Positions 19 to 15,517 of a stretch of DNA of 15,517 nucleotides are shown here, in pieces; the first letter of the stretch is position 1, and each line of letters opens with the position of its first letter. The position numbers and the translations under genes were made by a program. Under the pieces are notes generated by a model, which made no database searches, was not told where the DNA came from, and was given only the letters and a program-made list of their open reading frames with translations. This DNA is from Elysia marginata (lineage: Eukaryota). The stretch covers positions 296,901 through 312,417 of the forward strand of contig BMAT01011902.1 of NCBI GenBank assembly GCA_019649035.1, read 5' to 3'.

Positions 19-351
19 AAGAAAAAATGTGAGAATATTTTCCTGCACTCAACAAGTAATTTATTTATAATAAAGACTTAATTTAGTTTTGATGGAGAAG
101 GCGGGTACATTACTAGATAAAGCTTCTTCCTATATTAAAACTTTTGGTGAAATAATAGATCACTTGTCAGAAAAAAAACTGGTTGTCAGTCTGTTTACAT
201 TGTTGTTTCAAAAATAATTGAGGTAGATAAGAAGTTTGAGAGTACTTGAGTGTTTTTGTATAATTTCTCAGTATATTAAATTTTTAAGATATCTACCTCA
301 TTTATCAACCATAAAACCAGGCCTTAATCAATGTTTGTTTTTCACCAACAG

Positions 352-501
352 GAAGTTTCTCGCAGCCCTGGTGACAGGTGGATGATCCGAGGGCCCAAAG
401 AGTATGTTCCCCCTGTGGAGGTGGAGGTTGTGATGAAGAGACAAGCTATCCCCATGGATGAGAATGAGGGCATTTATGTGCGCGACATCAAGAGTGGAAA
501 G
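352..501 (+). CDS. MVP: Major vault protein internal exon ([50 protein letters not shown]), phase 0 to phase 0
   Basis: Polypyrimidine tract plus CAG acceptor at 349-351 and AAG|GTAATT donor at 502-503. The translation closely matches vertebrate MVP at ...[39 protein letters not shown]. Confidence 0.88.
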
Positions 502-822
502 GTAATTCTCTCTCAATGCTGTTCAGAAAAACCCCCAGGGAAAGCCAATTTTTAAAAAATTGATATTTTCTGTTATAGGGTAAAATTTGACTTAAAAATG
601 TTTTGCATAACACAACAATATAATTTATGAAGTAGTCTCCTTAAAATTACATAGAAGAATAGTTGGTTCGCCCTTTAAATCCCCTATGACAAAAAAATCT
701 TTATTTGTTTTGCATTTTGAGCGAATGATTCAGAAGTCAAAATAGCTTTTGAGAAAACATTTATGTGTCTATTTTTTCTTCTTTTTTTTTCTAGTATTTC
801 AAATCAATGAAAGTTTACATTT

Positions 823-910
823 CTTTTGACAAAATATTGATAAGCCTAGAAAAATGTCTTGTTCAAAACAGCAACTTCTTTTAAAAATTTCAACATCTAA
901 CTCATTCACC
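823..910 (+). repeat. Dispersed intronic repeat, copy A (MVP intron)
   Basis: Three collinear blocks are shared with 5597-5716: TTTTGACAAAATATTGA, the 27-mer GAAAAATGTCTTGTTCAAAACAGCAAC (27/27 identical) and CTCATTCACC. Confidence 0.6.
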
Positions 911-1159
911 CCAGATGCAAGACAGTTTATTTTGAATTTGCTTAATTTTTAAAGTCAGATGGGTCTCATAACTCTAATCTTTCAAATCTTGTGACATAAT
1001 ATAGGTTGCAAAGCAATATTTTTTTTATCTGAAAACATGTTCAGCTTCCAACCCATTTATACTAAATATACTAAATTCCACAACTAGACTCATCTTGTGG
1101 GCACAGAATAGTGATCAAGTTTTCGGCAAAATTTATTTATTAACTTTCATCGTCCACAG

Positions 1160-1392
1160 GTGCGTGCTATCCAGGGTGTTACATACATGCTGAACCAAGA
1201 TGAGGAACTCTGGGCCAAAGAACTTCCACCGGCAGTGGAGAATCTGCTGACCGTTGACCACATGGCTGAGAGGAGTGACCGCCAAGGTGTTAAAGATGCC
1301 AAGGGTACCAGAGACAAAACTCGTGTTGTCAACTTTCGAGTGCCTCACAATGCAGCTGTGCAGATCTATGACTACAAAGAGAAAAAAGCAAG
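1160..1392 (+). CDS. MVP: MVP exon ([24 protein letters not shown]...[18 protein letters not shown] + 2 nt), starts phase 0 and ends phase 2
   Basis: CACAG acceptor at 1158-1159 and CAAG|GTAAGA donor at 1393-1394. Matches MVP at [30 protein letters not shown]...[26 protein letters not shown]. Confidence 0.9.
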
Positions 1393-2274
1393 GTAAGAAT
1401 GGATCGTTCTACTGTTTTTTTGTTTACCATGTAAAGGAAGCTATTTGACACATAATCATCATACTTTTTGTTCAGTGCAAAATTCTCTTTGCCTTATTTT
1501 TGAGCATCCAGTAAAATCCTGACTATCAACACCACAAGACTGGACAAAAAATAAAAGATAAATGTGGATGAATGTCTTCTTAAACTTTAAGAAAAAAGAA
1601 AGAAAAGACTACCAAAAGAGGTTGGCTTATAGCAAGCAAGTCCCCTTAAGAGTGTTTTACTGATAACAGAATCCTCAATTCATTGTTTGATTACATATGA
1701 TAATGTTGATCTCACCACTAACTGATTGTTTAGCAATGTCTGTGATGAGTTTTTTATATCCCCTGTATTTTTTCTCTGTGTCACAGGCAGGTTCGTAGAC
1801 AATTAGGTGCATTGCAATTGAATAGCTGTATATGACACTTGTAGAATGGGAAACACAATAAGAAAGTTTAACTATGAAAAGGAAAAAAATACCTTTTCAT
1901 TGATTTGGGTCATTCAGTTGTATTATACCAAACAAAAAAATCCTTTATAAAGTTAATATGATTTTGTCAAATAAGAATCTTGGTTTTGTGATATATTTAG
2001 TGAGGGAGATGGCAGAAATTATATTTTTTGGAAAGAGTGAATTGGTATCATCATAGAGGTTTTTGAAGCTCTTGAACTAAAAATGATTTCTCGATTTAGG
2101 GATTTGAAAACATGTCGTCTATGTCATACCTCTCAAAATGCGTCTTTACTAACAAAATCGAAGTTGTTTTATTCTTAAATCACTGAAATTATGCACCATA
2201 CCTCTCACACCTTTCAAATAAAAAAACACCCCATTTTTAAAAATTTCTCACATATGTGGCTTTTTGTTTTTCAG

Positions 2275-2472
2275 AGTTATTTTTGGGCCAGAACTTGTGA
2301 TGCTCGGCCCAGATGAGCAGTTCACACAATTGAGCCTGTCAGGAGGAAAGCCTAAGAAGCCCAACATGATTAAGTCCCTTTGTCTGCTCTTGGGGCCTGA
2401 CTTCTGTACAGATATCATTGTTGTTGAGACGGCCGACCATGCTCGGCTATCTCTTCAGCTGTCATACAACTG
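2275..2472 (+). CDS. MVP: MVP exon ((R)[65 protein letters not shown] + TG of W)
   Basis: TTTTCAG acceptor at 2273-2274 completes the split Arg codon. Donor is TG|GTTAGG with GT at 2473-2474. Matches MVP at [29 protein letters not shown]...[32 protein letters not shown]. Confidence 0.9.
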
Positions 2473-2489
2473 GTTAGGGCCTTTCTCTG

Positions 2490-2517
2490 TTTTTTTTTTT
2501 TTCTTTTTTTTTTTTTT
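2490..2517. repeat. Poly-T tract of 28 nt with one C, located in the intron immediately after the exon donor
   Basis: TTTTTTTTTTTTTCTTTTTTTTTTTTTT. Confidence 0.9.
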
Positions 2518-2912
2518 GACGTAAAAAAGCTTTGGCTTGCTAGGTTTTGCTCTCTGATTATTAGACACAACTATAGAAATAAAAGATGACAAAACATCTT
2601 ACTGTGTAGTTTAATCTATGATAATTGCAAATTTATGGAGTGCCTATAATCTACAAAAGCAGTGTACTGAGCACTGTGCATGGTAAACGCTGAAGATAAA
2701 ACACATCCATTCACTAAAAATACACAATGGGCAATATTATCATTTACATAATGGTTTAAAAAGAGGCTGTAAGATTGTTTGCACACACAAAAAGTAAAAA
2801 AAAAAAACAACTCATTTTTCTCTATAAAAGGGAAATAAAAAGTAAGGTAGAGATCATTTTATGTATTGATGACCAGAACTTGAAAACTTGTATTGTAACA
2901 TTTTCTAAACAG

Positions 2913-3054
2913 GCATTTTGATTACGCAAAGCAAACAGCAGAGGAAGCAGCGAAACTGTTCAGTGTGCCTGATTTCACTGGTGATGCTTGCAAGGCGATT
3001 GCTTCTCGAGTGAGAGGGGCTGTTGCACAGGTCCAGTTTGACGATTTCCACAAG
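2913..3054 (+). CDS. MVP: MVP exon ((W)[47 protein letters not shown])
   Basis: AAACAG acceptor at 2911-2912 supplies the G completing Trp. AAG|GTGAGT donor at 3055-3056. Matches MVP at [48 protein letters not shown]. Confidence 0.9.
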
Positions 3055-4255
3055 GTGAGTCCACTTGGTTGTTGATCGTGCAGCAATTTCAAAATGTTAG
3101 AAACCTTTGCTCTTGATGGTTTATCTTTTCTCAAGCTTCATTTAAGGCTGAAAATAAAATAAAAACACATGTGTGGTGATTGAACGAAACCCGCTGGAAC
3201 TCGGTAAAGTTAGTTCTGTGCTAGTGGTTTAAAGTGAAAATATTGATGGTAAATCGATACTCAGCCAACACCAAAATTTATTTTCAGAACCTTTCTTGTT
3301 CTAGATTTAATCTAGATCTTGGTCCATTATTGGTAGATCATAAAATCAGATTTAGACCTAGATTCTACTCTAGATCTGTCAGCTGTTGGATGATCGGTAA
3401 GTGCTACGCAAGGCCGTATTTAGTCCATAGTGTGAAAGCAAGCTTCATCTCGACAAAATGTAGGCTGCATTAAGTCGGCTAGATCACTTTTGGTCAAAGG
3501 AAAAGCAGTTAAATAGTGCTATACACTAAAGGTGGAAACAAGATGATGGTATGAAAGCAGAATTTTAAGTGTAAAAGGAGCTTTTAATTTTTCTTTCATG
3601 CAAGAATTGTTGATAATGAAATCTCTGAACATAGCAATGATGTTCAAAATGTTTTAACGACTGAAAACAATGTTTTTATTGTTAAACACTTTGAAAAACA
3701 GTGGAAAAAGCCTTAACTCTAAACATGATTTTCTCAGTTTCTACTTTTTACGAGTGAATGTCTTTGAAAGGCCATAACTTTGGTTCTAATTAAGATATTT
3801 ACAAAATTTAAACAGCATTCTAATCAGAAAAGGTTGTTCTCCATAAAAAAAAGTAAAAACAAAATATCCCTCATTGGCGAGTTGTGGAGGGTTTCCCCAT
3901 ATACCCACACAGATTTAAACAAAAAGGATCCTTTTTGTTATCTCAACTCAATGATAATTTTAATATTTTTGCATATCCTTAAATACTTTAAAAAATGATT
4001 GGATGCGAATATGGTCTTAATTTTGTTGCAGATTTTAATAATAGATGCTTGTTCTTATTCTGAAATGATGCGGTTGCAAATGCCATAAATTGTCCTGTCC
4101 TGATTTTGTAGTTGTTAAAAACGACCTTAATTAGTAAAAGGTCCCACTCTTCCAAAATGGTACCATTTAATTGGGATCAACTTTGTTGACTTTTAGCAAT
4201 GTTTAAAAAAAATCAGGTTTGTCTGTGTTCAGCAAAGCAATTATTTTATATCGCA

Positions 4256-4271
4256 ATATATATATATATAA
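4256..4271. repeat. (AT)n microsatellite
   Basis: ATATATATATATATAA in the intron. Confidence 0.85.
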
Positions 4272-4375
4272 AAATGTGTATTGTGCTTTGCATTATAGTC
4301 ATTCTTTTAAATCAAAACACCAAATAAATCTCAACTTTCAGGAGTTAATGCTTTGTCACCATGCTTGCCTTTCAG

Positions 4376-4587
4376 AATTCTGCCAAAATCATCCGTGCTT
4401 CTGTGTTTGGCATGGACACCAATGGTAAAGTGAAGGAGCAGTTCAACTTTCCCCAGAACAATCTCGTCATAACGAGCATAGATATCCAGTCTGTGGAACC
4501 GGTAGACCAGAGGACGAGAGACGCCCTGCAGAAGTCGGTGCAGCTGGCTATTGAGATCACAACAAACTCTCAGGAGGCTGCCGCCAG
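4376..4587 (+). CDS. MVP: MVP exon ([70 protein letters not shown] + AG)
   Basis: CCTTTCAG acceptor at 4374-4375 and CAG|GTGCTG donor at 4588-4589. Near-identical to vertebrate MVP at NSARIIRTAVFGF...[48 protein letters not shown]. Confidence 0.92.
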
Positions 4588-4961
4588 GTGCTGCCTAAGA
4601 TTTCCAGCTTGAGTTCAAGGCTTCTTTGTGTTTCATTAGTTTTAAACCAATCGATTCATTTCACTGGATGTAGAAGATGTGAATGTCTAAAAAATGATAG
4701 ACCATAGTACTGCTCTCTTAAAAAAAGACCAATGTTTTGCCTTTCTCTGTTAATGTAACACTACTGATACTTTAAAAAGAACAGAATAAGGATGGCAATG
4801 TAAGAAGTCTTTGTTAGATTTAGCTGAAGAACTGAGTCAAAGAGAGCTCAGAAGTATTTAATGTGTTGTGAAAACAAACTCGATGAAGCTGACGAGAAGT
4901 TCATCAACTGCTTACTCGAAATGATAGAGTTTAACCCAAAATTTTCTTTCCTTACCATTAG

Positions 4962-5205
4962 GCACGAAGCCGAACGTCTGGAGCAGGAGGCCAAGGGCAG
5001 ACTTGAGAGGCAGAAAATCACAGACGAAGCAGAGGCAGAAAAGGCCAGGAAACAACTGCTGGAGCTGCAAGCCAACAGCGCTGCGGTGGAGAGCACAGGA
5101 CAGGCCAAGGCTGAGGCCCAGAGTAGAGCAGAGGCCTCCAAGATTGAGGGTGAGGCAGCAGTGGAGCAAGCCAAACTCAAGTCAATGGCATCCAAGATTG
5201 AGGCT
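4962..5205 (+). CDS. MVP: MVP coiled-coil (cap-helix) exon ((R)[81 protein letters not shown])
   Basis: CATTAG acceptor at 4960-4961 completes the split Arg. GCT|GTAAGT donor at 5206-5207. Matches MVP at [80 protein letters not shown]. Confidence 0.9.
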
Positions 5206-5596
5206 GTAAGTGGTTAGAGTTAAGGGTTGACTTACTTTCTCTTGTGTTGAAATCTTCTTGACATCAAATAGGTCATCTATCCCTGAAAAAAACTGTTACA
5301 TACAAAACCAATTAAACTAGGAAAAAAAAAGCCCTACAAAACTCACAATTAGCAACTTCTATCTTTTGTGTGCAGGGAAGTAATTAGAAATAACCAGTGA
5401 TTTGTATTTATGTCCCTTTAAATGTTGATGGAGCTTTACGTTTGTCACACATTCCTGGAATGACTGATAAATTTAATATTTTCTCGCATTCAGGGTTATT
5501 GAATCGGAAATTAGAAATCCCTCCCCCTCCCCCTTTTTTTTTAAAATTCTATTTAAAAGTCTATTTTTACTTCTTTTATATAAACAAAATTATTAT

Positions 5597-5716
5597 CTTT
5601 TCACAAAATATTGAAATAATTATGAATTTTTTTGACATTTGGTAGCTTGGAAAAATGTCTTGTTCAAAACAGCAACACCTTTGAGGATGCAAATAGCGAT
5701 TTCCGACTCATTCACC
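5597..5716 (+). repeat. Dispersed intronic repeat, copy B (a different MVP intron, same orientation)
   Basis: TTTTCACAAAATATTGA ... GGAAAAATGTCTTGTTCAAAACAGCAAC ... CTCATTCACC. The spacers between blocks differ in length and sequence from copy A. Confidence 0.6.
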
Positions 5717-6071
5717 TTAAAAACTAGAAATTAACTATTCATTTTTGTAAAGTTAAACATTTTTTTGTGATGACCAATCACAGATGGATATTTCGAGATG
5801 TTGAACCTGTGCAAGAGGTTGTGGGTTTTATCCCCAGTCCAGGCAAATTCTTATTCTCTGCAACCCAGCCTGAGACATTGGATAGCTGAGTCCTTGTAAA
5901 GTTTTATAGCAAACTGCCACACAACTCTATAATGAGGATCCTTCTTCTTGTTTCCTGACTGTGGTATTAAGTGTAGGACATAGTTGACTTTTTATCTTAA
6001 ATTTATTTGGACCATGCAAAGGACTAATTCTATATCTAAAACCTTTTTTTTAAAAATCCTAAATCTATCAG

Positions 6072-6260
6072 GAGTCTGAGCTAGACCGCCTGACCCAGGC
6101 TCGGGAAGCCGAACTGAAATATTCGTCAGAGCAGAACAGGATGGAGCTGGGCAAGGCCCAGGAGCTATCAGCCATCGAGATCAAGAAGTTCAAAGAGATG
6201 GTCGAATCGATTGGAGCCAACACACTCCTCGCCATGGCAACGGCTGGTCCAGACATGCAG
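6072..6260 (+). CDS. MVP: MVP exon (ESELDRLTQAREAELKYSSEQNRMELGKAQELSAIEIKKFKEMVESIGANTLLAMATAGPDMQ)
   Basis: CTATCAG acceptor at 6070-6071 and CAG|GTAAAT donor at 6261-6262. Matches MVP at ...[26 protein letters not shown]. Confidence 0.88.
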
Positions 6261-6399
6261 GTAAATAAGATGTAGCCTAAGCAACATATTGTCACGTCTG
6301 GCTTGCTAAACCATAAAAAACATCGTTCATTGTTTTAGTCTAGAGATGTTGTCAATTGATAAACTTTGAAATGGGGAAACAATCTATTAGTAATAACAT

Positions 6400-6600
6400 T
6401 GATACTAAAAGTAATTGTAGTCATAATAGTTGTAATAATAATGCTTATAATAAATTTTAAAGTAACGTCAATAATTATGGTCTGAATAATGAAAATGTTA
6501 AAAAATATTGTTATAAATAATAATGATGGTAATAGTGATGTTCATGATGATTATAATAAGAATAATGATTATAATGCTTTTGATGTTGTCATAAAGAAGG
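6400..6600. repeat. AAT/GAT-rich low-complexity block with triplet periodicity (last MVP intron)
   Basis: Reiterated AATAAT, GATGAT and TAATAA units, for example AATAATAATGATGGTAATAGTGATGTTCATGATGATTATAATAAGAATAATGATTATAATGC. Confidence 0.7.
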
Positions 6601-6713
6601 CAATAAGATGATTTTTTTCCTGTAAGTAGTTTTTCTTTTTCTTATAAATTTGCATTCAATTCACAAGAACTTAAACATGTGAACTAATCAACCTTCATCC
6701 CTCCTTCTCATAG

Positions 6714-6869
6714 GTGCGCATGCTGCAGGCCCTGGGCTTGAAGTCGACGCTCATTACCGATGGTTCATCTCCCATCAACCTGTTCAACACAGCATCTGGT
6801 CTCATTGGAGGCCTGGTGCCAGCAAAACCTGGCAGAGCACAGACCGCGGATGATGATGATGATGTGTAG
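6714..6869 (+). CDS. MVP: MVP terminal coding exon ([51 protein letters not shown], then TAG stop)
   Basis: TCTCATAG acceptor at 6712-6713. Matches MVP at [32 protein letters not shown]. In-frame TAG at 6867-6869. The poly-Asp tail is encoded by (GAT)5. Confidence 0.88.
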
Positions 6870-7060
6870 ATGCAGAACTGGTCTTTAGCTTTACTTGATT
6901 CAAGCATAGAGAGGGGGCAATAACACTTTCCACCATTTAGGCTACATTTGTTCAAGAAAGAATCCTTTGAAAAGTTAAACATTTCATTTAAAAGAACTGC
7001 ATGAGTTCGAAAATATAGGAAGGCATGTGAAAATAAAACCAAAGGAATATAATCTATCAA
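6870..7060 (+). other. MVP: Probable MVP 3' UTR with an AATAAA polyadenylation signal at 7032-7037
   Basis: Non-coding sequence follows the stop. The canonical AATAAA lies about 165 nt downstream, within GAAAATAAAACC. A second AATAAA near 8368 could serve a longer UTR isoform. Confidence 0.4.
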
Positions 7061-9494
7061 TTGTTTAAACTCCATTGGAAAAGTATAAAGGAGGGAGCCG
7101 GATAAAAAGCATTGCAAATTTTCATGAAAAGATCTTTCAGCAAAGACTTTGTTGGTCCTTTAAAATGCAATTAATTTTAAATTGCGAGCATTCAGTGTTG
7201 CCCATCGCCCCATATAATCCAGTTCTGTTTAAAGTTAATCAGGGAATTTATTTAGTAAGGTCTGCCTTTGGCTCAGGCTTAAATGAAATGACACTTAGAT
7301 CTGTAGTCTACACTATAGTAGATCTTTGTCTGATGAAGATACAGAGAGCTCCTAATGGAAACATCTTTTAATGATGAATTTATTGTTGTATACCACTCAT
7401 TAAATTTCCAAAACAAAATATGTAAAGCGATATTTTTTACATATATTGTCGTCATTTTTAGATTTTATGTAAGCTGTGAAATCACATTGTTGTAATCTAT
7501 TCTTGTTTCATTCTTTAAAACTTTATTTGCTGTGACAATTTGATATAACTTATTTAGACTTATATATGTAGAATGTACAGTACAACCGCCTGAACCGCCT
7601 GTTGTATAATTATCATTTAGTTTCTACAGTTTGTGTGTGACTCATATCAAGTGAAGGACCTCATGCCATTCTTATGAAATAAGCGCATCAATGGTGTCAT
7701 GTTACTTTTTTACACTATTGAAGTAAATCATGTTTGTTGTAAAATTGATCACTAGACTTTCTCTTCTATTTTGACTCATTTTTTCGTAATGACCCACACA
7801 AACCATATTCCATGGAGTATTTACTGTATAAAGTGTTGCCTTGGTTAGTGTTATAAGTCGTTGCTCAATTTTTTATACAATCTTTTATTTTCGAAATGGG
7901 AACAGTTTCTTAAATTTTCATTGGTTTTGATTATAATAAGATTTTTGGCTTTAAAGAAATACCAAAATATAAGCTAAAATCTTCGAGTTTAAGGGGGCAA
8001 AAAGAAGACTTTAAAAATTAGCCTTAAAAAAAAATCCAAACAAACAAGCTATATTTTGTGTATTGCAAGCTTGGCTTCCCGGAGTTTGAGGTTGTTGGAC
8101 TTTTGTTTTGCTTGTTACTGTCTACAGAAGACATTACCTGTACAGGGACTTTTTATTTTTGAACAAATTTAGTTTCCCTTTTTTTTCCCTTACACATGCA
8201 ATATCAATTGATAGATAATTCACGTGACTCGACTCAACTGTGATGAAAGTTTGTGGTTTTTTGTTTGCTTTTTCACAATCTCATATTTCTTAAAATTTTC
8301 TTTTGTTTTTGAATAAGTGTAAATTAAGTTTTTTTTTCTGAGTTTTCAACATTGAATTCTACAACAAATAAATCATTCTTTTGTTACAAACTTGTGATAT
8401 TCAAACTAATAAATTTAAAATCCAGTTTACACACATCTTTGTTCTATGTATGCTTTTTTTTCAACTTACATTTTGGTAGTACCAGTTTGTGTCAAGACCC
8501 ATTGCAGTTGAAAGCCAAGGTACAGGTTTAATTTTTGAAATCATTTGTCCATTAAGAGTAATTATATCACTAGAAGAGACATTAGGCAGGAGACAGCAAA
8601 GCTAATGATTTTCAATATAGGTCTTGCTTTTAAAAGTTATTTAATTCTGCAATGTTGCACATTAGGTTATAAAAATCTTATGCTAGAAGGATAAGAGAAG
8701 TCTTCTGCAAAATATTTTTCTTTTTAAAACAACAATGATACCTGAAGACTTGCATTGAAATATTTTTTTTCTTTGGTTTATGGCAGGTTTGAGAAAAAAA
8801 ATAGCCCAGCTGTGGCTCCCAACTTAGCTAAAAAAAAGGTGTTGAATAGTGTCAGCAAAAGAATATCAGTTTAATATAAAATTTCACTGGTGATAAACTC
8901 CAGAAAAGTTGTAAGATGTAATTTCTGTTTTCAAGGATCCCATTGAAAAGCAGACCTGTCCTTTTTATTCTGTAAGGAGCACTGCATTGTTTCTAAATTT
9001 GTCATCAGAGAAAAAGAAACATCAATGATTTTTTTATTTCATTTCTAATAATTTTGCCATCATTTCGGGCATTCTTCTTAAAGCATGCTTCTACCCACCT
9101 CTAATTTCATACTGTACCTAAAATCTTGTAATCAGCTCTTATCAGGAGTTGTTTACTTCGGTCTGAATTGTTATAATACTCGGCAGCTCTGCACTTAGCC
9201 CTGCCGATGTTTACCATAAGTCTAGCGTACGGTACTAAAATCACTTAGATGACATCAAACACCTAAAGCTAGTTTACCCTCAAAATATTCGAATCCATAT
9301 TTATGAACCCAAGCACCACCTAATTACATAGTGGACGAGAGAGACAGACACTTGAAAGCTGAAAGTAATCTTATTTTGTATCCTCGGGAAAAGGTTTAAT
9401 TTTTACGGATACCAGACTGTCCGGGCCCCTACTGGTTGGGTCCGTGTCAGTATAATGTGACCGGCTGAGGCCAAGTCATGGTATCACCGCTAGT

Positions 9495-9645
9495 AGAGGC
9501 CTTTAGCACACGCACCGTGTTTCATTACGCGTACGTGAAAATCGGGAAAGCAGATTGAGAAACTATAAAAATAATGAAACCAGTTTCTAAAAATAGACCC
9601 ACAGACGTTCGCGTCATACTCACGCGTTGCTGCTTAAAGTCTGTA
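9495..9645 (+). mobile_element. Solo arm (half-copy) of the same foldback element family
   Basis: This 151-bp stretch is about 94% identical to the left arm of the 14959-15263 palindrome (AGAGGCCTTTAGCACACGCACCGTGT...GCTGCTTAAAGTCTGTA). It begins at the same terminus and stops exactly at the position matching the palindrome centre. No inverted partner arm lies nearby. Confidence 0.75.
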
Positions 9646-11820
9646 TTCTCTGGGTGGCAGCCCGTACATTGTCATTGGGATCTAAGCGCTGAGAGCACCT
9701 TTGAAGTGGAATTGGGCTTGTAAAATATCCTTCAATCAATCAATTACGGATATCAGGGTTGTAAAGATTTTAGTGTTGCGTCTAGGATATCAATAAGATA
9801 AAGGATATGTTGAAAAGGGTAAGTGTAAATCGACAGCTTCATGACTATAATAGTTTGCAGACTGTTATGAAAAGAAGGAAGAAGCCTCCCCAGGTCTTGG
9901 GATACACGAATCTTTCAAAGTAAGCAGCAGCCTTAAAGCTACACTAGGCTCTTATTTTAGTACGGCAGTGTAAACAACATTGGATGAAGAAATTTAAATA
10001 TGTGGATGCGGGGGTGGAATAAACGGTCAACATTCGGGCCAGCTCTTCAAAATTCTTAGAAATGCCTCCAGAATGATAGACCTACCAATTTTTGACAAAG
10101 GTGCAATTAAAATCGAGTTAGAACCTGGAAAAGGAGAGTACAAAGTAAAGCAGATGCTGGGGCAGGACTTGATATTTTGGTTGCTTCACATGAAGAGAGG
10201 CAACCAATAGAAAACTGTGCATAGACGTATGACAAACGGTCATGGTTGGATGTCAAATAAAAAATATGGGAGGCAACTGAACTAAAAACAAATTTTGAAG
10301 TATCGCAGCTTAAACTCGTGTTTTTATTCTCTTTGAGAGTGATTTTTCGCGTTTCTTACTTCGTTTTTGCTTTTGCAACTTAACATTTCATATTCCTGAG
10401 ATTCACCCTTTGAGATTGAAGGTAGATACTTACAGAGAAATAAACAGCAAGACAACTTTAAATCATCTCAACCATCTCTGAGGTCTTCTTGATCTTGACG
10501 CATTTCCGTCTCCTTTGCAAAACTGGCCATGAATAGTGCAAAACCACCAGCAATGGCGGGCCGAACAGTGATGAGAGAATGATTTTATCTTGACAGAAAT
10601 TATAGTCTATATTCTAAAAAAAACAACAACTAAAAGCAATAACAAAATGCAATGAATTTGTTGAAAAATTCCTTCAACCCTAGGATGTTAACCATGTTAA
10701 AAGGAAAAAGACGCCGTATCTATACATGGAGACAGTGAGTAACGAGCTATGCGCGCATTAAACATGACCACAGATTGCGATGTAGACCAGTAAAAAAATA
10801 CAGTAAAATCATGTAGAATGTGATATAAACTTATAAAGTTGTCTTCCTATTTTTATTTCTCTCTTGAAAAAGAGATTATTGATTTTATTGTGGGTTTCTT
10901 TCATTAAATGCCCAATGCATTAGTCTATTCAGCGTTATTTTAGAAAAAAGGAATTTTATCTTTGAGAAAATGTTATCTCATCCAGCAAAAACACGAAATA
11001 AAAAGTTGCACATGTTTTTAAGGACTTGAAAAGCAACATTATGAAGTAAGGCTTGCCAGGTATCTATTAAGTTTTTCATTGGTTGCTTCGCTATGCAATT
11101 TCAAAGTATCAGTAAACTTTTATTCTTTTGATGCCACATTTGGAGATTTAAAATAATTTTGCCCAGAAGGCTCTCCACACATCTTTTGGCGTTAGTGTGA
11201 AAAGACATTATTTCAACTCTTAGGCCTAATCTTCCCGGACGTTTCTTAGCTTGTTCAAACAGAGGGATCACAGGGCACGTTGACAGCTTACTAAAGTAGA
11301 GATTTTGGCTGTTCGTGACCAAATCAAAGGCAAGTGTAGAGGCGACTTAAGGATATGTCTTTACCAACGGTGATAAAAGAACAGAAAAGTAAGGGTGCAT
11401 GCAGAGTGTGAACAAGTAATCTTGCTTCAGTTGACACTGTCTACCGTTTTTAGAGGTGAAACAGTTCAAGAAAATATCCAAAAGATTATGGATTAGCCAA
11501 TATTTTTTAACTAAATAGTCATTAGCATGTCTTCATCTTTCCTTAGACTCTATTGGGTAACTTTAAGTATCATATTATTTTCAACCCAAACAAGCATAAT
11601 ATGAATCATTTAATCGTGACTTCTTCATTTGTTAAAGAAACTATATGAACCAATCCAAAATTACTATAAAGACCGCCCACTAAACTTAATAAGTCTAAAC
11701 GCCACATCTTCATCAAGGAACTATTTATGTTTTATTCTTTTGCTTTTCATGCGCTGTCTCAATACCACCCCGTGGCTTTTACTATATCTTTTACTCACTG
11801 TCTCTCTCACACAGTCACGC

Positions 11821-11838
11821 CCCTCCCCCCCCCACACC
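11821..11838. repeat. Poly-C / C-rich homopolymer tract
   Basis: CCCTCCCCCCCCCACACC. Confidence 0.8.
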
Positions 11839-12727
11839 TCTCTTATGCCCTAAATGCATATTACAACTCCTACACCTCTATTGTTTCGTACCATGCTTAA
11901 TGGAAACGTATTAACTTGTAGGGAAGGAGTATATTCTTTCATGATGGCACAAACAGGCCTGGAGCCTACTAAAACCGATTTGATTCCAAAGTTAGTCACA
12001 CCACTTCAATCTGTCTCTCCGAAATTCAATGAACAAAAATATTAACTAGGCCTACTGCTTTGTAAAAAGTTAACATCTAATTAAAAATAATTTTACTTTA
12101 TTACAGTACACTTTAAATAGCCCATACATTTTCTGCTTGCTCGCTACAACCTACTTTATATCAACATTGCGAGTACCATTACGCTTGATGAAGTAATTTA
12201 ACTTTTTTAAGAAATGTATTGCTTCGTTTAATACCAAAGACATTAGACATGAAATTTAGAAAGTAGGAGATAGAGATAGAAATTATTTAGACGCTGTAGT
12301 GAAAAACATGCTATATGTACTAAATTGATTGCCGATTCACCAGTTTTATTTACTGTGTTATTTTTTGAATAAAGGTATTTTCCGAATAAAAAAAAATGTT
12401 GCAAATGTTGTGCCAAACTGGCAAACTCGTATTAGTTGCAAAATTTATAAGTTTTGGTGCAGACGTATAACATCAGTTTCATAGAACCTAAAAAAAACAA
12501 AAACAACAAAAAAAAAACTGTTTATGGTAACACAGAGATCTAGTAGAAATAAAAGGCAGGGTTGAATGAACCAGCCAGCTTAGAAAAGGCAAAAATGTAT
12601 AAAAGAAGCTATAAACCTTTGCTTTAGGCTAAAGCCGTGTGTAATTTTCCCACAACAGTAACTGTTTAGAAGCAACAGATGTTTATTTAAAGACTTCAAA
12701 AATGTTGTGTTTATAACGTATTCACCG

Positions 12728-12730
<3 letters not shown>

Positions 12731-12775
<45 letters not shown>
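12731..12775. repeat. (CT)n / (GA)n microsatellite with about 19 pure units
   Basis: CTCTCT... run. It explains the spurious minus-strand ORF encoding RERERERE at 12580-12786. Confidence 0.95.
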
Positions 12776-13417
12776 AACAAACCCATTTAAACATAGTGGT
12801 TCAAAAAATTAAGCTACTGATAAGTTTTGAAGTAATTGATTATACCATCAACGCAACCATCCAGTTCTATGGCATCTTACATAACTACAACTAGTCTACG
12901 TTTTAATGATTTACATGTTTTAAAGTCTTAAGATGTTGCAATCTTGTAGCATAAAACATCTCACTATTGATAAGAAAATGACACGATCCCTTTGAGGGGC
13001 TCAGTTCCCCAGCTCATCAGATTTCTCTGTATGGTTTAATCAAAGACGGTGCAGTTAGATAAGATCAGGCACTCTCTAGTAGGCACAACTAAAACACGCG
13101 TACACAACCATACCCTCTCAGGCGACATCCTGCAAAGAAAAATAGTCTTTTTATTTTAGGCTTACTGCAGTTGGAAAAAAACCCAACAACATTGTAGTAA
13201 ATTTATTGATACGCAGACGTAGAAATTTATTTCTGTTATTGTGACCATTGTTTACATGTGCACACGCCGGTACAGCCATAGCGACAAATTATTTTCAAAT
13301 AGTGTCCTATCTGTACACTTATTATATCTGTGGTTTACAGTCCTGACTGATGCTTCCCGCAGATCCTCATATGGAGGGCTCTTTAAAACTGGCTCAAGCA
13401 CCGCGGCATCTGACTGG

Positions 13418-13425
13418 TGACGTCA
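13418..13425. promoter_or_regulatory. Perfect palindromic CRE (TGACGTCA) inside a CpG-retaining patch; candidate promoter element
   Basis: GGTGACGTCACACGG lies in a locally CpG-containing region (13250-13460) of an otherwise AT-rich, CpG-poor window. A CTATATT motif and a CA|GTAAGC donor-like site follow at about 13482-13500. Confidence 0.2.
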
Positions 13426-14225
13426 CACGGTGTATCTGGGTCAGACAAACACTCCAGGGATGTGCTGCTCAAACCATCTTCCTATATTGTCCTTCCTCAG
13501 TAAGCTAACATAATACTGTAAGTTTTAACCTAACCATGAATAATCAGCATTTTTTCTTATGTTGTATCCCGTGTTATGAAATACGTAGAAAAGTAGGGTA
13601 CCGTTGCAAAAAAATCAGGCGGAAGTAAAACCTAAGGTACTGGAGCTTTAAGGTCTCTCATTAAAACGATTGATGCGTCTTTGTGAAGCTGTCGGGATTC
13701 AGACTTCCCTGCGAAACTACTGCCGACCCAGGAGCGATAAAATAGGGCCTTAACAATGACGAGAAAGTATGGTTCTTCCCGGGTAGACCTCATAAAGGCC
13801 TTATTAAAAAGTTTAAAAAAGATACCAGGACCAAATGATAGGATTTGTTTTAAATGCCCGCTCTCGGTTTTTAATCTTTGTTAAAAAAAGCAAATAATGG
13901 TCATGTCGAGAAGTTTTACTAAAACACACAAAATTCAATGTGCCGGCCAGCCTAAAACAGTTTTATCTGCGGAGATGTATTTATGATATCAACCAATAGA
14001 TCAGAAAAAAATATAAATCAAACAGCATTTTGAGATGATAGGTTAAACGAAATAAAAGTTTAACAGAAAATAGTCGCGATTCGAAAATCTTTCCACGGTG
14101 GGGTAATCAGCCTGATTCACAGCGGCTCAGGTAGAAATATTTTTCAAGAATACTGTATGGCGATGACGATAAATCTATTTAAAGATCGAGTGTGCCTGAT
14201 AGTGGTTAAATTTAGCCAACTCTTT

Positions 14226-14249
14226 CTTGGATTGCATCTTGGATTGCAT
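14226..14249. repeat. Perfect tandem duplication of a 12-mer (CTTGGATTGCAT x2)
   Basis: Direct adjacent repeat read in the sequence. Confidence 0.85.
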
Positions 14250-14958
14250 CATAATTATTCAAACATAGTTCGGGAAAACTTTTATTTGCGCCTCTGTGCC
14301 TACCAAGCCCTTGATGGGTAGCTGGATCTCTTGAGACTCGACGAAAGTGAAGGCGGCGAGGAAAGCAATGGCAAACTACCTCGTTATGCTGTATGCCTGA
14401 AAAATAAGAACACTGCTCCTTGTTCCATTACGCTCGTCTCGAGTACGGGAAATTTTACTCTACTTTACAATAAAATGTCTTTGAATCCGTTTTTTTCCCT
14501 TTCACCTTGATGAAATCTACTGATCACCTATCTTTCAAGTCTGATAACCTCAAGGCGTAATCAAGATATCAAATTAATATTTCCACCACATTAAAAAATT
14601 TGAAACAGATTTTCAAATATATAGGGTCTATAAAATTATGTATCTCTAGATTTCAAGTTTCCGAAGCTATTTAATTTATGAGATATCTACAGAAAAACCG
14701 AGACCGCCACAAGTATTTGAGTTTAAACGTGAGCACTCTAAACACAGTTTGCTTTCGATTTCAAAAGTTTGACAAAATGTCGATAAACTGTAATCCTCTT
14801 TGACAAGAAACAAAAGGTAGGCTACAAACAACATGACGGCAAACTTTCATCGAGGAATTGAAATTGAAAGGAGGTGCTAGATTTTTATGTAAAGAAGTTT
14901 CAAGAAGAGCTCAGGATAGAAGCGAGTGAAAGCCGTTTGTCGTCGAAACCTAGACCAT

Positions 14959-15263
14959 AGAGACCTTTAGCACACGCACCGTGTCTCACTACGCGTACGT
15001 GAAAATCGGGAAAGCAGATTGAGAAACTATAAAAATAATGAAATCAGTTTCTAAAAATAGACCCACAGACGTTCGCGTCATACTCACGTGCTGCTGCTTA
15101 AACTCTGTCATACAGACTTTAAGCAGCCAACGCGTGAGCATGACGGGAACGTCTGTGGGTCTATTTTTAGAAACTGGTTTAATTATTTTTATAGTTTCCT
15201 TGATCTGTTTTCCCGATTTTCACGTACGCATAGTGAGACGCGGTGCGTGTGCTTAAGGTCTCT
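14959..15263. mobile_element. Foldback / hairpin element, a near-perfect 305-bp palindrome made of two ~152-bp inverted arms with essentially no loop
   Basis: The left arm is AGAGACCTTTAGCACACGCACCGTGTCTCACTACGCGTACGTGAAAATCGGG...GCTGCTTAAA. The right arm is its reverse complement at about 90% identity and ends ...CGCGGTGCGTGTGCTTAAGGTCTCT. The symmetry centre lies at 15110/15111. Termini are AGAGACC / GGTCTCT. CAT abuts both ends and may be a 3-bp target-site duplication. Confidence 0.75.
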
Positions 15264-15517
15264 CATATATGTTAAAAAGCCCACGATGATGATGATGGTT
15301 ATAATTAAATGAACTAAGAAAAAACTTCTAAGAAAAAAGGCAAATTCAACTCTAACACAATTATGTCAATATGTTTCGCAAAATGACTAGACTGCACGTA
15401 GTCAAAAATATTTTAAGATTTAACTGTGATTTATTTCTCGTAATATTTTTATCATTATCTAGAATATTCTCCTGCTTCTGAAGGGTGTGGCCGTTGACAC
15501 GAAACTAGGGCTAGGTC

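Follow-up and report, generated by a model that had tools for sequence, protein, structure and literature searches.

A 305-bp palindrome of Elysia marginata as a probable inverted double insertion of a 150-bp MITE

Introduction

A non-autonomous cut-and-paste element, which a DDE transposase moves in trans, is typically recognised by short terminal inverted repeats (TIRs), by a target-site duplication (TSD) with a fixed length of 3 bp and by the absence of coding capacity. The TSD of PIF/Harbinger elements has the consensus TWA, and termini of the Tc1 type read TA-CAG. In the foldback elements of Drosophila (FB) the arms are made of tandem sub-repeats, and FB moves as one element. The centres of palindromes are hotspots of breakage.

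Canonical Harbinger and EnSpm elements make 3-bp TSDs, and the termini of EnSpm are 5'-CAC...GTG-3' (PMC12730594). The Repbase rule by which non-autonomous elements are classified asks for the same TSD length and for the same terminal positions 1-11 with at most one mismatch (PMC4455052). Complete elements can also be brought together by double insertion, the published signature of which is a copy of the target, of TSD length, inside the junction (McGurk & Barbash 2018, PMC5932611). This arrangement has been shown for P-element and hobo dimers, with bacterial IS dimers cited alongside them, and head-to-head P-element dimers are documented as well (PMC5932611).

Here we analyse a palindrome in a 15,517-nt stretch of Elysia marginata DNA (the window), which is animal DNA with a GC content of ~36%. 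The original prediction described the palindrome as a single 305-bp foldback element. We come to a different reading of the mobile unit, which appears to be the ~150-bp arm with its own TIRs, its own TSD and solo copies, and we suggest that the palindrome probably consists of two such MITE copies.

Results

The palindrome has the same triplet at its centre and on both flanks

The inverted repeat at 14959-15263 was confirmed over its 305 bp, with CAT on each flank (Table 1). Repeat finding resolves it into three collinear arm pairs, namely the outermost 14959-15026/15196-15263 (90%), the middle 15023-15093/15128-15198 (92%) and the innermost 15093-15108/15112-15127 (94%), the last with 3 nt between the arms. 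In full, the arms of 150 and 152 nt are 90.0% identical and differ by 13 substitutions and two 1-nt indels. When folded as single-stranded DNA, the 305 nt form a single hairpin of -148.5 kcal/mol; the dinucleotide shuffles give -33.6 +/- 4.4 kcal/mol (z = -26), and none of 100 shuffles is as good. The predicted palindrome, its arm identity of ~90% and its nearly loopless centre are all borne out by the repeat finding and by the hairpin energy, a check proposed with the prediction, which lies far below the shuffles. The termini AGAGACC...GGTCTCT were also given correctly, as seen by direct reading.

The 3 nt at the centre are CAT, identical to both flanking triplets. The locus thus reads CAT-unit L-CAT-unit R (inverted)-CAT, where both units have their full length and the middle CAT is common to them. 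The flanking CAT triplets had been noticed before, and they represent a genuine 3-bp TSD. The identity of the central triplet with them had been overlooked, as had the TIRs of each arm and a solo arm at 9495-9644.

Table 1. Coordinates of the palindrome, its units and the solo copy within the window.
Feature	Position	Strand	Evidence or remark
Left TSD copy CAT	14956..14958	.	Direct reading; identical to central and right triplets
Left MITE unit, 150 bp, subfamily A	14959..15108	+	Reads outer to inner end; nhmmer full-length E = 1.6e-54
Left unit outer TIR AGAGACCTTTAGCA	14959..14972	+	10/14 vs reverse complement of inner 14 nt
Left unit inner TIR TGCTTAAACTCTGT	15095..15108	+	TIR comparison
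Central CAT, target-site copy common to both units	15109..15111	.	Palindrome centre
Right MITE unit, 152 bp, subfamily B, inverted	15112..15263	-	nhmmer full-length E = 2.3e-51
Right unit inner TIR ACAGACTTTAAGCA	15112..15125	+	12/14 vs its outer TIR
Right unit outer TIR TGCTTAAGGTCTCT	15250..15263	+	TIR comparison
Right TSD copy CAT	15264..15266	.	Direct reading
Solo MITE unit, 150 bp, subfamily A	9495..9644	+	nhmmer E = 4e-55; no inverted partner near
Solo unit left TSD AGT	9492..9494	.	Empty-site inference
Solo unit right TSD ATT	9645..9647	.	One mismatch vs AGT
Host SINE-like retroposon	9416..9743	+	Pieces 9416-9491 and 9648-9743, (CAAT)3 tail; context, outside MITE
SINE 13-bp TSD TTACGGATAyCAG	9403-9415 and 9744-9756		Brackets 328-bp insertion

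Six-frame Pfam scans of 7000-15517 revealed no domain and no transposase, and no protein family matched the element in any frame, in agreement with the prediction of a non-autonomous element lacking an ORF. Matches to the unit in protein databases are only mis-annotated fragments of gene models. No tandem sub-repeats were reported by Tandem Repeats Finder within 14959-15263. The earlier remark that the arms match no recognised family is supported: nothing reached the gathering score in Rfam, the element is undescribed in the papers searched, and a full-text search with four 16-18-mers of the unit returned no paper.

The 150-bp stem would be an ideal Dicer substrate if transcribed. We consider it very improbable that the palindrome is a hairpin-RNA gene (a miRNA or siRNA precursor) kept by selection, although such a gene would be compatible with a transposon origin. 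The Rfam scan gave only sub-threshold hits of the generic-hairpin kind, and tRNA genes were not found. The weak hits to the long-hairpin miRNA models MIR8562 (99.5 bits), mir-3179 (45.8 bits) and mir-2002 (29.6 bits) are far under the gathering thresholds of 211, 90 and 49 bits, respectively, and those to mir-3179 and mir-2002 fall on both strands equally, as any long hairpin would produce. Moreover, the differences between the arms track the transposon subfamilies described below, not compensatory pairing.

Each arm is a unit with its own termini

The unit has the termini 5'-AGAGACCTTTAGCA ... TGCTTAAAGTCTGT-3', which form imperfect TIRs of ~14 bp. When the opening 14 nt (AGAGACCTTTAGCA) are compared with the reverse complement of the closing 14 nt (ACAGACTTTAAGCA), 10-12 of 14 positions agree in each of the three units of the window. 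As good a TIR match is reached by only 0.02-0.06% of the 14-mers of the window (0.04% for the left unit outer TIR). Folds of the single arms pair the outer end with the inner end, and they are only marginally better than those of shuffles (z = -0.5 to -2.1). We also considered, and rejected, a 'palindrome of a palindrome' in which the whole arm would be self-complementary; that complementarity is marginal (z = 1.4-2.5), and only the ends of ~14 nt are convincingly inverted.

Repeat finding over the whole window together with the profile search located the solo unit, which is 95.3% identical to the left arm. Its homology starts precisely at AGAG and ends precisely at ...TCTGT. The terminal 22-mer occurs at three sites in the window, where none is expected by chance. 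With a length of 150-152 bp the units are below the ~800 bp of MITEs, and they have no coding capacity.

A single 5.8-kb transposon at 9495-15263, whose left TIR would be the solo arm, was rejected, as no protein domain is present between the ends; it is also ruled out by the solo unit's own TSD inside a SINE.

The MITE units are rich in CpG, with 10-11 CpGs each and an observed/expected ratio of 1.4-1.6, compared with 0.58 for the window. Many of these CpGs sit in motifs of the ACGCGT/ACGT type. The CpG richness could reflect protein-binding sites, youth or a lack of methylation.

The unit is dispersed in Elysia marginata and enters its gene models

Searching translations of the element against the protein collection gave six hits, all of them E. 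marginata gene models and all on different contigs. The copies seen are three units in the 15.5-kb window and fragments in these six models; the genomic units examined number three, and the remaining copies are known as translated parts of gene models, whose splicing might displace the apparent boundaries. This agrees with the predicted transposon-derived nature of the DNA, which belongs to a dispersed family. P0121 (GFR81128.1) holds the whole unit with unrelated sequence on either side. P0122 and P0123 begin at an ATG inside the unit and exit at its inner end into LINE ORF2, and P0124, P0125 and P0126 finish in the outer terminus of the unit. According to the original prediction, copies that do not share the termini would point to a local inverted duplication instead of an element. 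Other copies do have the termini, which favours an element, but all of those found are single arms.

The joining of P0122 and P0123 to LINE ORF2 at two different positions prompted us to ask whether the arm could be a small RNA, the head of a SINE or the target of a site-specific LINE. We rejected this; in the simpler reading, units are nested in LINE copies and the models start at an ATG inside the unit.

Translated fragments of the MITE, the SINE and LINEs are carried by the E. marginata models P0121-P0131 (e.g. GFR95935.1 and GFR62157.1). These fragments are repeat contamination of the annotation and probably reflect units nested in LINE copies. The SINE family is exonised in antisense in 'protein numb' (GFS05320.1), GFR73793.1, GFR99337.1, P0130 and P0131. 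Relatives of both the SINE and the MITE family were found only in E. marginata models.

Scans with a CpG-free invariant 21-mer gave four metagenome loci, one prokaryote locus and no viral one. We discarded them as chance matches, which share 22 nt alone. Among them, L001, L002, L004 and L007 (Porticoccaceae MAG) are prokaryotic contigs with the same exact 22-nt match and, ~250 nt from it, a 17/20 match. All four appear to carry a single conserved bacterial gene that resembles the element by coincidence.

The arms represent two subfamilies

The left unit is closer to the solo unit than to the right unit (90.0%). L and R differ at 15 places, and in the three-way alignment with the solo unit 11 of these differences are private to R. 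At least four of these R-private changes are also present in P0121: an extra G at column 65, C at 118, G at 125 and an extra G at 136. R and P0121 thus have two 1-nt insertions and two substitutions in common and translate as ...DVPVMLTRWLL..., whereas L, the solo unit, P0122 and P0123 carry the other state, ...DVRVILTCCCL.... Since the markers of R recur in the independent copy P0121, the arms come from different source lineages, which we call subfamilies A and B.

The subfamily difference argues against duplication by folding back or by template switching. It also speaks against taking the 10% divergence simply for the age of a once-perfect palindrome. The recent formation proposed earlier is not supported, given this 10% divergence, in which four or more of the differences are subfamily markers common to an independent copy.

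Without any transposition, a resident arm could also have been duplicated locally in inverted orientation, through hairpin-primed repair or a template switch during replication. Such events yield loopless palindromes, and the window has just one palindrome. We regard this origin as extremely unlikely nonetheless. The copy in such an event starts identical to its template, yet R has four changes of a separate lineage in common with P0121; in addition, the junction and both flanks bear the same 3-bp triplet, and the family is dispersed.

Empty sites point to a 3-bp target-site duplication

The solo unit is embedded in a 328-bp insertion that looks like a retroposon of the SINE type, ending in (CAAT)3 and having its own 13-bp TSD. 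With the unit removed, the SINE translation matched five further E. marginata models. The intact SINE copies in P0127, P0128 and P0129 read across the insertion point as ...AATQR-LAGIP.... The joined SINE flanks of the window read ...AATQRILAVIP..., which is one codon longer than the E. marginata models, and the reading of these models is restored by dropping exactly 3 nt, while dropping 1 or 2 nt fails. Since the joined flanks are 3 nt longer than the intact SINE, the insertion comprises 150 bp plus 3 bp, i.e. the unit and a 3-bp TSD. The empty site used here is a paralogue that may belong to another species, and it is read at the level of codons; the comparison indicates that the unit makes a 3-bp TSD (AGT/unit/ATT at the solo copy). 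The TSDs of the window are CAT/CAT twice, both perfect, and AGT/ATT once, with one mismatch, at the solo unit. In P0121, the only other copy with both flanks readable, the TSD also looks imperfect (?GT/AAT).

A TA duplication of the Tc1/mariner type is suggested by four of the six ends, which read TA/[G/C]AGAC. It is ruled out by the 3-nt excess at the empty site, and the other two ends (left unit inner and right unit outer) carry TC or GA where TA is needed.

One boundary was confirmed against orthologous DNA of Elysia crispata. P0124 follows the E. crispata orthologue codon by codon (...VVSSFS[I/T]I) before it passes into the outer terminus of the unit. The DNA of E. crispata at this place (L008, ~11510-11530) reads ...TCATTTTCAACAAT/TACTAGC... 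without the unit, and the divergence between E. marginata GFR79519.1 and orthologous E. crispata lies exactly at the outer terminus of the unit. The E. crispata site is empty, hence the insertion in GFR79519.1 is species-specific. In the 15.5 kb of E. crispata retrieved there is no MITE unit and no SINE copy. L008 11500-11540 belongs to Elysia crispata JAWDGP010001097.1, in the orthologue of the FLYWCH-domain gene modelled as GFR79519.1.

These data bear on the possibility that the 305-bp palindrome is a canonical foldback element or a MITE with long TIRs, of which the solo arms are broken halves. Such an element would account for the nearly loopless centre between CAT/CAT flanks; breakage at the palindrome centre, a known hotspot, could produce the halves, and microhomology between the central and flanking triplets could remove one arm cleanly. 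We find this unlikely on several grounds. It leaves unexplained why the inner end of each arm is an inverted copy of its outer end, and it does not explain the unit plus 3 nt at the empty site of the solo copy. A constant spacer would be expected next to the inner end, but solo copies have different triplets there (ATT, ATT, AAT and CAT). Furthermore, both arm types occur solo, and the arms have no tandem sub-repeats. The solo unit, with its own TSD and empty site, indicates that the whole inverted repeat is probably not the transposing unit.

Proposed origin of the palindrome

We suggest that the palindrome most probably consists of two ~150-bp MITE copies which were inserted in opposite orientations into the same CAT triplet. 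The junction holds one CAT of TSD length, identical to the outer duplications. In the proposed mechanism, which builds on the TIRs and the TSD, the MITE would be non-autonomous and would move by cut and paste, with a DDE transposase supplied in trans.

Step 1: The first integration would duplicate CAT.

Step 2: The second integration would use one of the two CATs and duplicate it again, which would give the product CAT-[A unit]-CAT-[B unit, inverted]-CAT.

Step 3: With the units facing each other, the locus would become a 305-bp palindrome with a 3-nt centre.

Both insertions probably occurred at the present locus, the alternative being that the units arrived as a preformed dimer. In the latter case an A-CAT-B dimer, made elsewhere, would have moved here as one 305-bp piece into a CAT target. 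Its outer ends, AGAGACCTTTAGCA and TGCTTAAGGTCTCT, are a good inverted pair, usable by a transposase, and CAT also flanks another copy (P0122), which makes a chance match of the central and flanking CAT less unlikely. This route deserves some weight but is on balance improbable: it needs the chance identity of the central and flanking triplets, which double insertion in place predicts, and neither the E. marginata fragments nor the representative-protein search showed a second dimer. Four copies reach an inner end, in three models of E. marginata and in the solo unit of the window, and none of them goes on into an inverted partner. An exhaustive search with the ORF that spans the centre found nothing reading across the dimer centre in 1.84 billion representative proteins; this ORF matched P0122 and P0123 only, and with its left-arm part only.

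Two insertions into the same 3 bp need a strong target preference or targeting directed by the resident end. There is a hint that CAT or other A/T-rich triplets may recur as targets (CAT, CAT, AAT, ATT and AGT). As a rather doubtful extension of the double-insertion mechanism, the transposase may prefer the duplicated target beside a resident end, so that inverted dimers would arise systematically and not by accident. These could behave as composite foldback elements and, if transcribed, could give perfect-stem hairpin RNAs feeding an endo-siRNA pathway directed at the family. If this were true, systematic dimers would be a route from a MITE to a foldback element and further to a small-RNA locus in a mollusc.

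Genomic surroundings

The palindrome lies ~8 kb downstream of the MVP (major vault protein) gene, the exons of which occupy 328-6828 on the + strand and encode the shoulder and cap-helix regions. Identity to the MVP exons does not exceed 91% in the nearest database fragments, none of which bears the name Elysia; no Elysia MVP orthologue, in which the orthologous dimer site could be viewed, was found among the closest hits. L005 and L006 share with the MVP region of the window the exons alone, at ~80% identity.

Other repeats of the window include a (TC)23 microsatellite at 12730-12775 and a perfect 12-bp tandem duplication, TCTTGGATTGCA x2, at 14225-14248. A 39-nt direct repeat (90%) is present in two MVP introns (843-881 and 5644-5682), and a 38-nt inverted match (76%) links an MVP exon segment (6175-6212) to the downstream region 10461-10498. 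The 39-nt and 38-nt matches may be other small repeats or chance.

Discussion

Read in this way, the locus presents a clean eukaryotic inverted double insertion, preserved for long enough that its arms can be compared. The dimer creates a cruciform-prone site near the MVP gene; no function is indicated. For the annotation of sacoglossan genomes the result has two practical consequences. Repeat libraries should hold the 150-bp unit (3-bp TSD, TIR AGAGACCTTTAGCA) and not a 305-bp consensus. The MITE and SINE families contaminate coding predictions in the public annotation of E. marginata, e.g. at the N-terminal ends of the models named 'protein numb' and 'TMEM177'.

In comparison with MITEs that have a 3-bp TSD (Tourist-like PIF/Harbinger and CACTA/EnSpm), the unit is alike in its size, lack of coding, short TIRs, TSD and dispersal. 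Like them, it nests in other repeats, here in the SINE and probably in LINE copies of E. marginata. The 3-bp TSD fits PIF/Harbinger; however, the triplets CAT, AGT/ATT and AAT do not fit the TWA consensus. An EnSpm/CACTA (CMC) MITE was rejected, since its TSD length fits but the termini AGAGAC.../...GTCTGT do not. Stowaway-like (Tc1/mariner) MITEs are similar in size, and the inner end TA/CAGAC... is reminiscent of the Tc1 type, but unlike in Stowaway the excess at the empty site is 3 nt, not 2 nt.

The palindrome resembles foldback elements of the Drosophila FB kind in that long inverted repeats make up nearly the whole structure, with a strong potential for hairpins and cruciforms. Unlike those of FB, the arms here lack tandem sub-repeats; each is bounded by TIRs and a TSD of its own, and arms are also found singly.

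In its arrangement the locus resembles the dimers of the P element, hobo, R1 and bacterial IS, in which complete elements with intact ends are separated by one target copy of TSD length. Unlike in these double-insertion dimers, the partners here are non-autonomous units of 150 bp from two subfamilies, and the spacer is just 3 bp, so that the dimer mimics a single near-perfect palindrome. We see in the palindrome a MITE family that is new but of a familiar kind, arranged as a dimer of a type already known.
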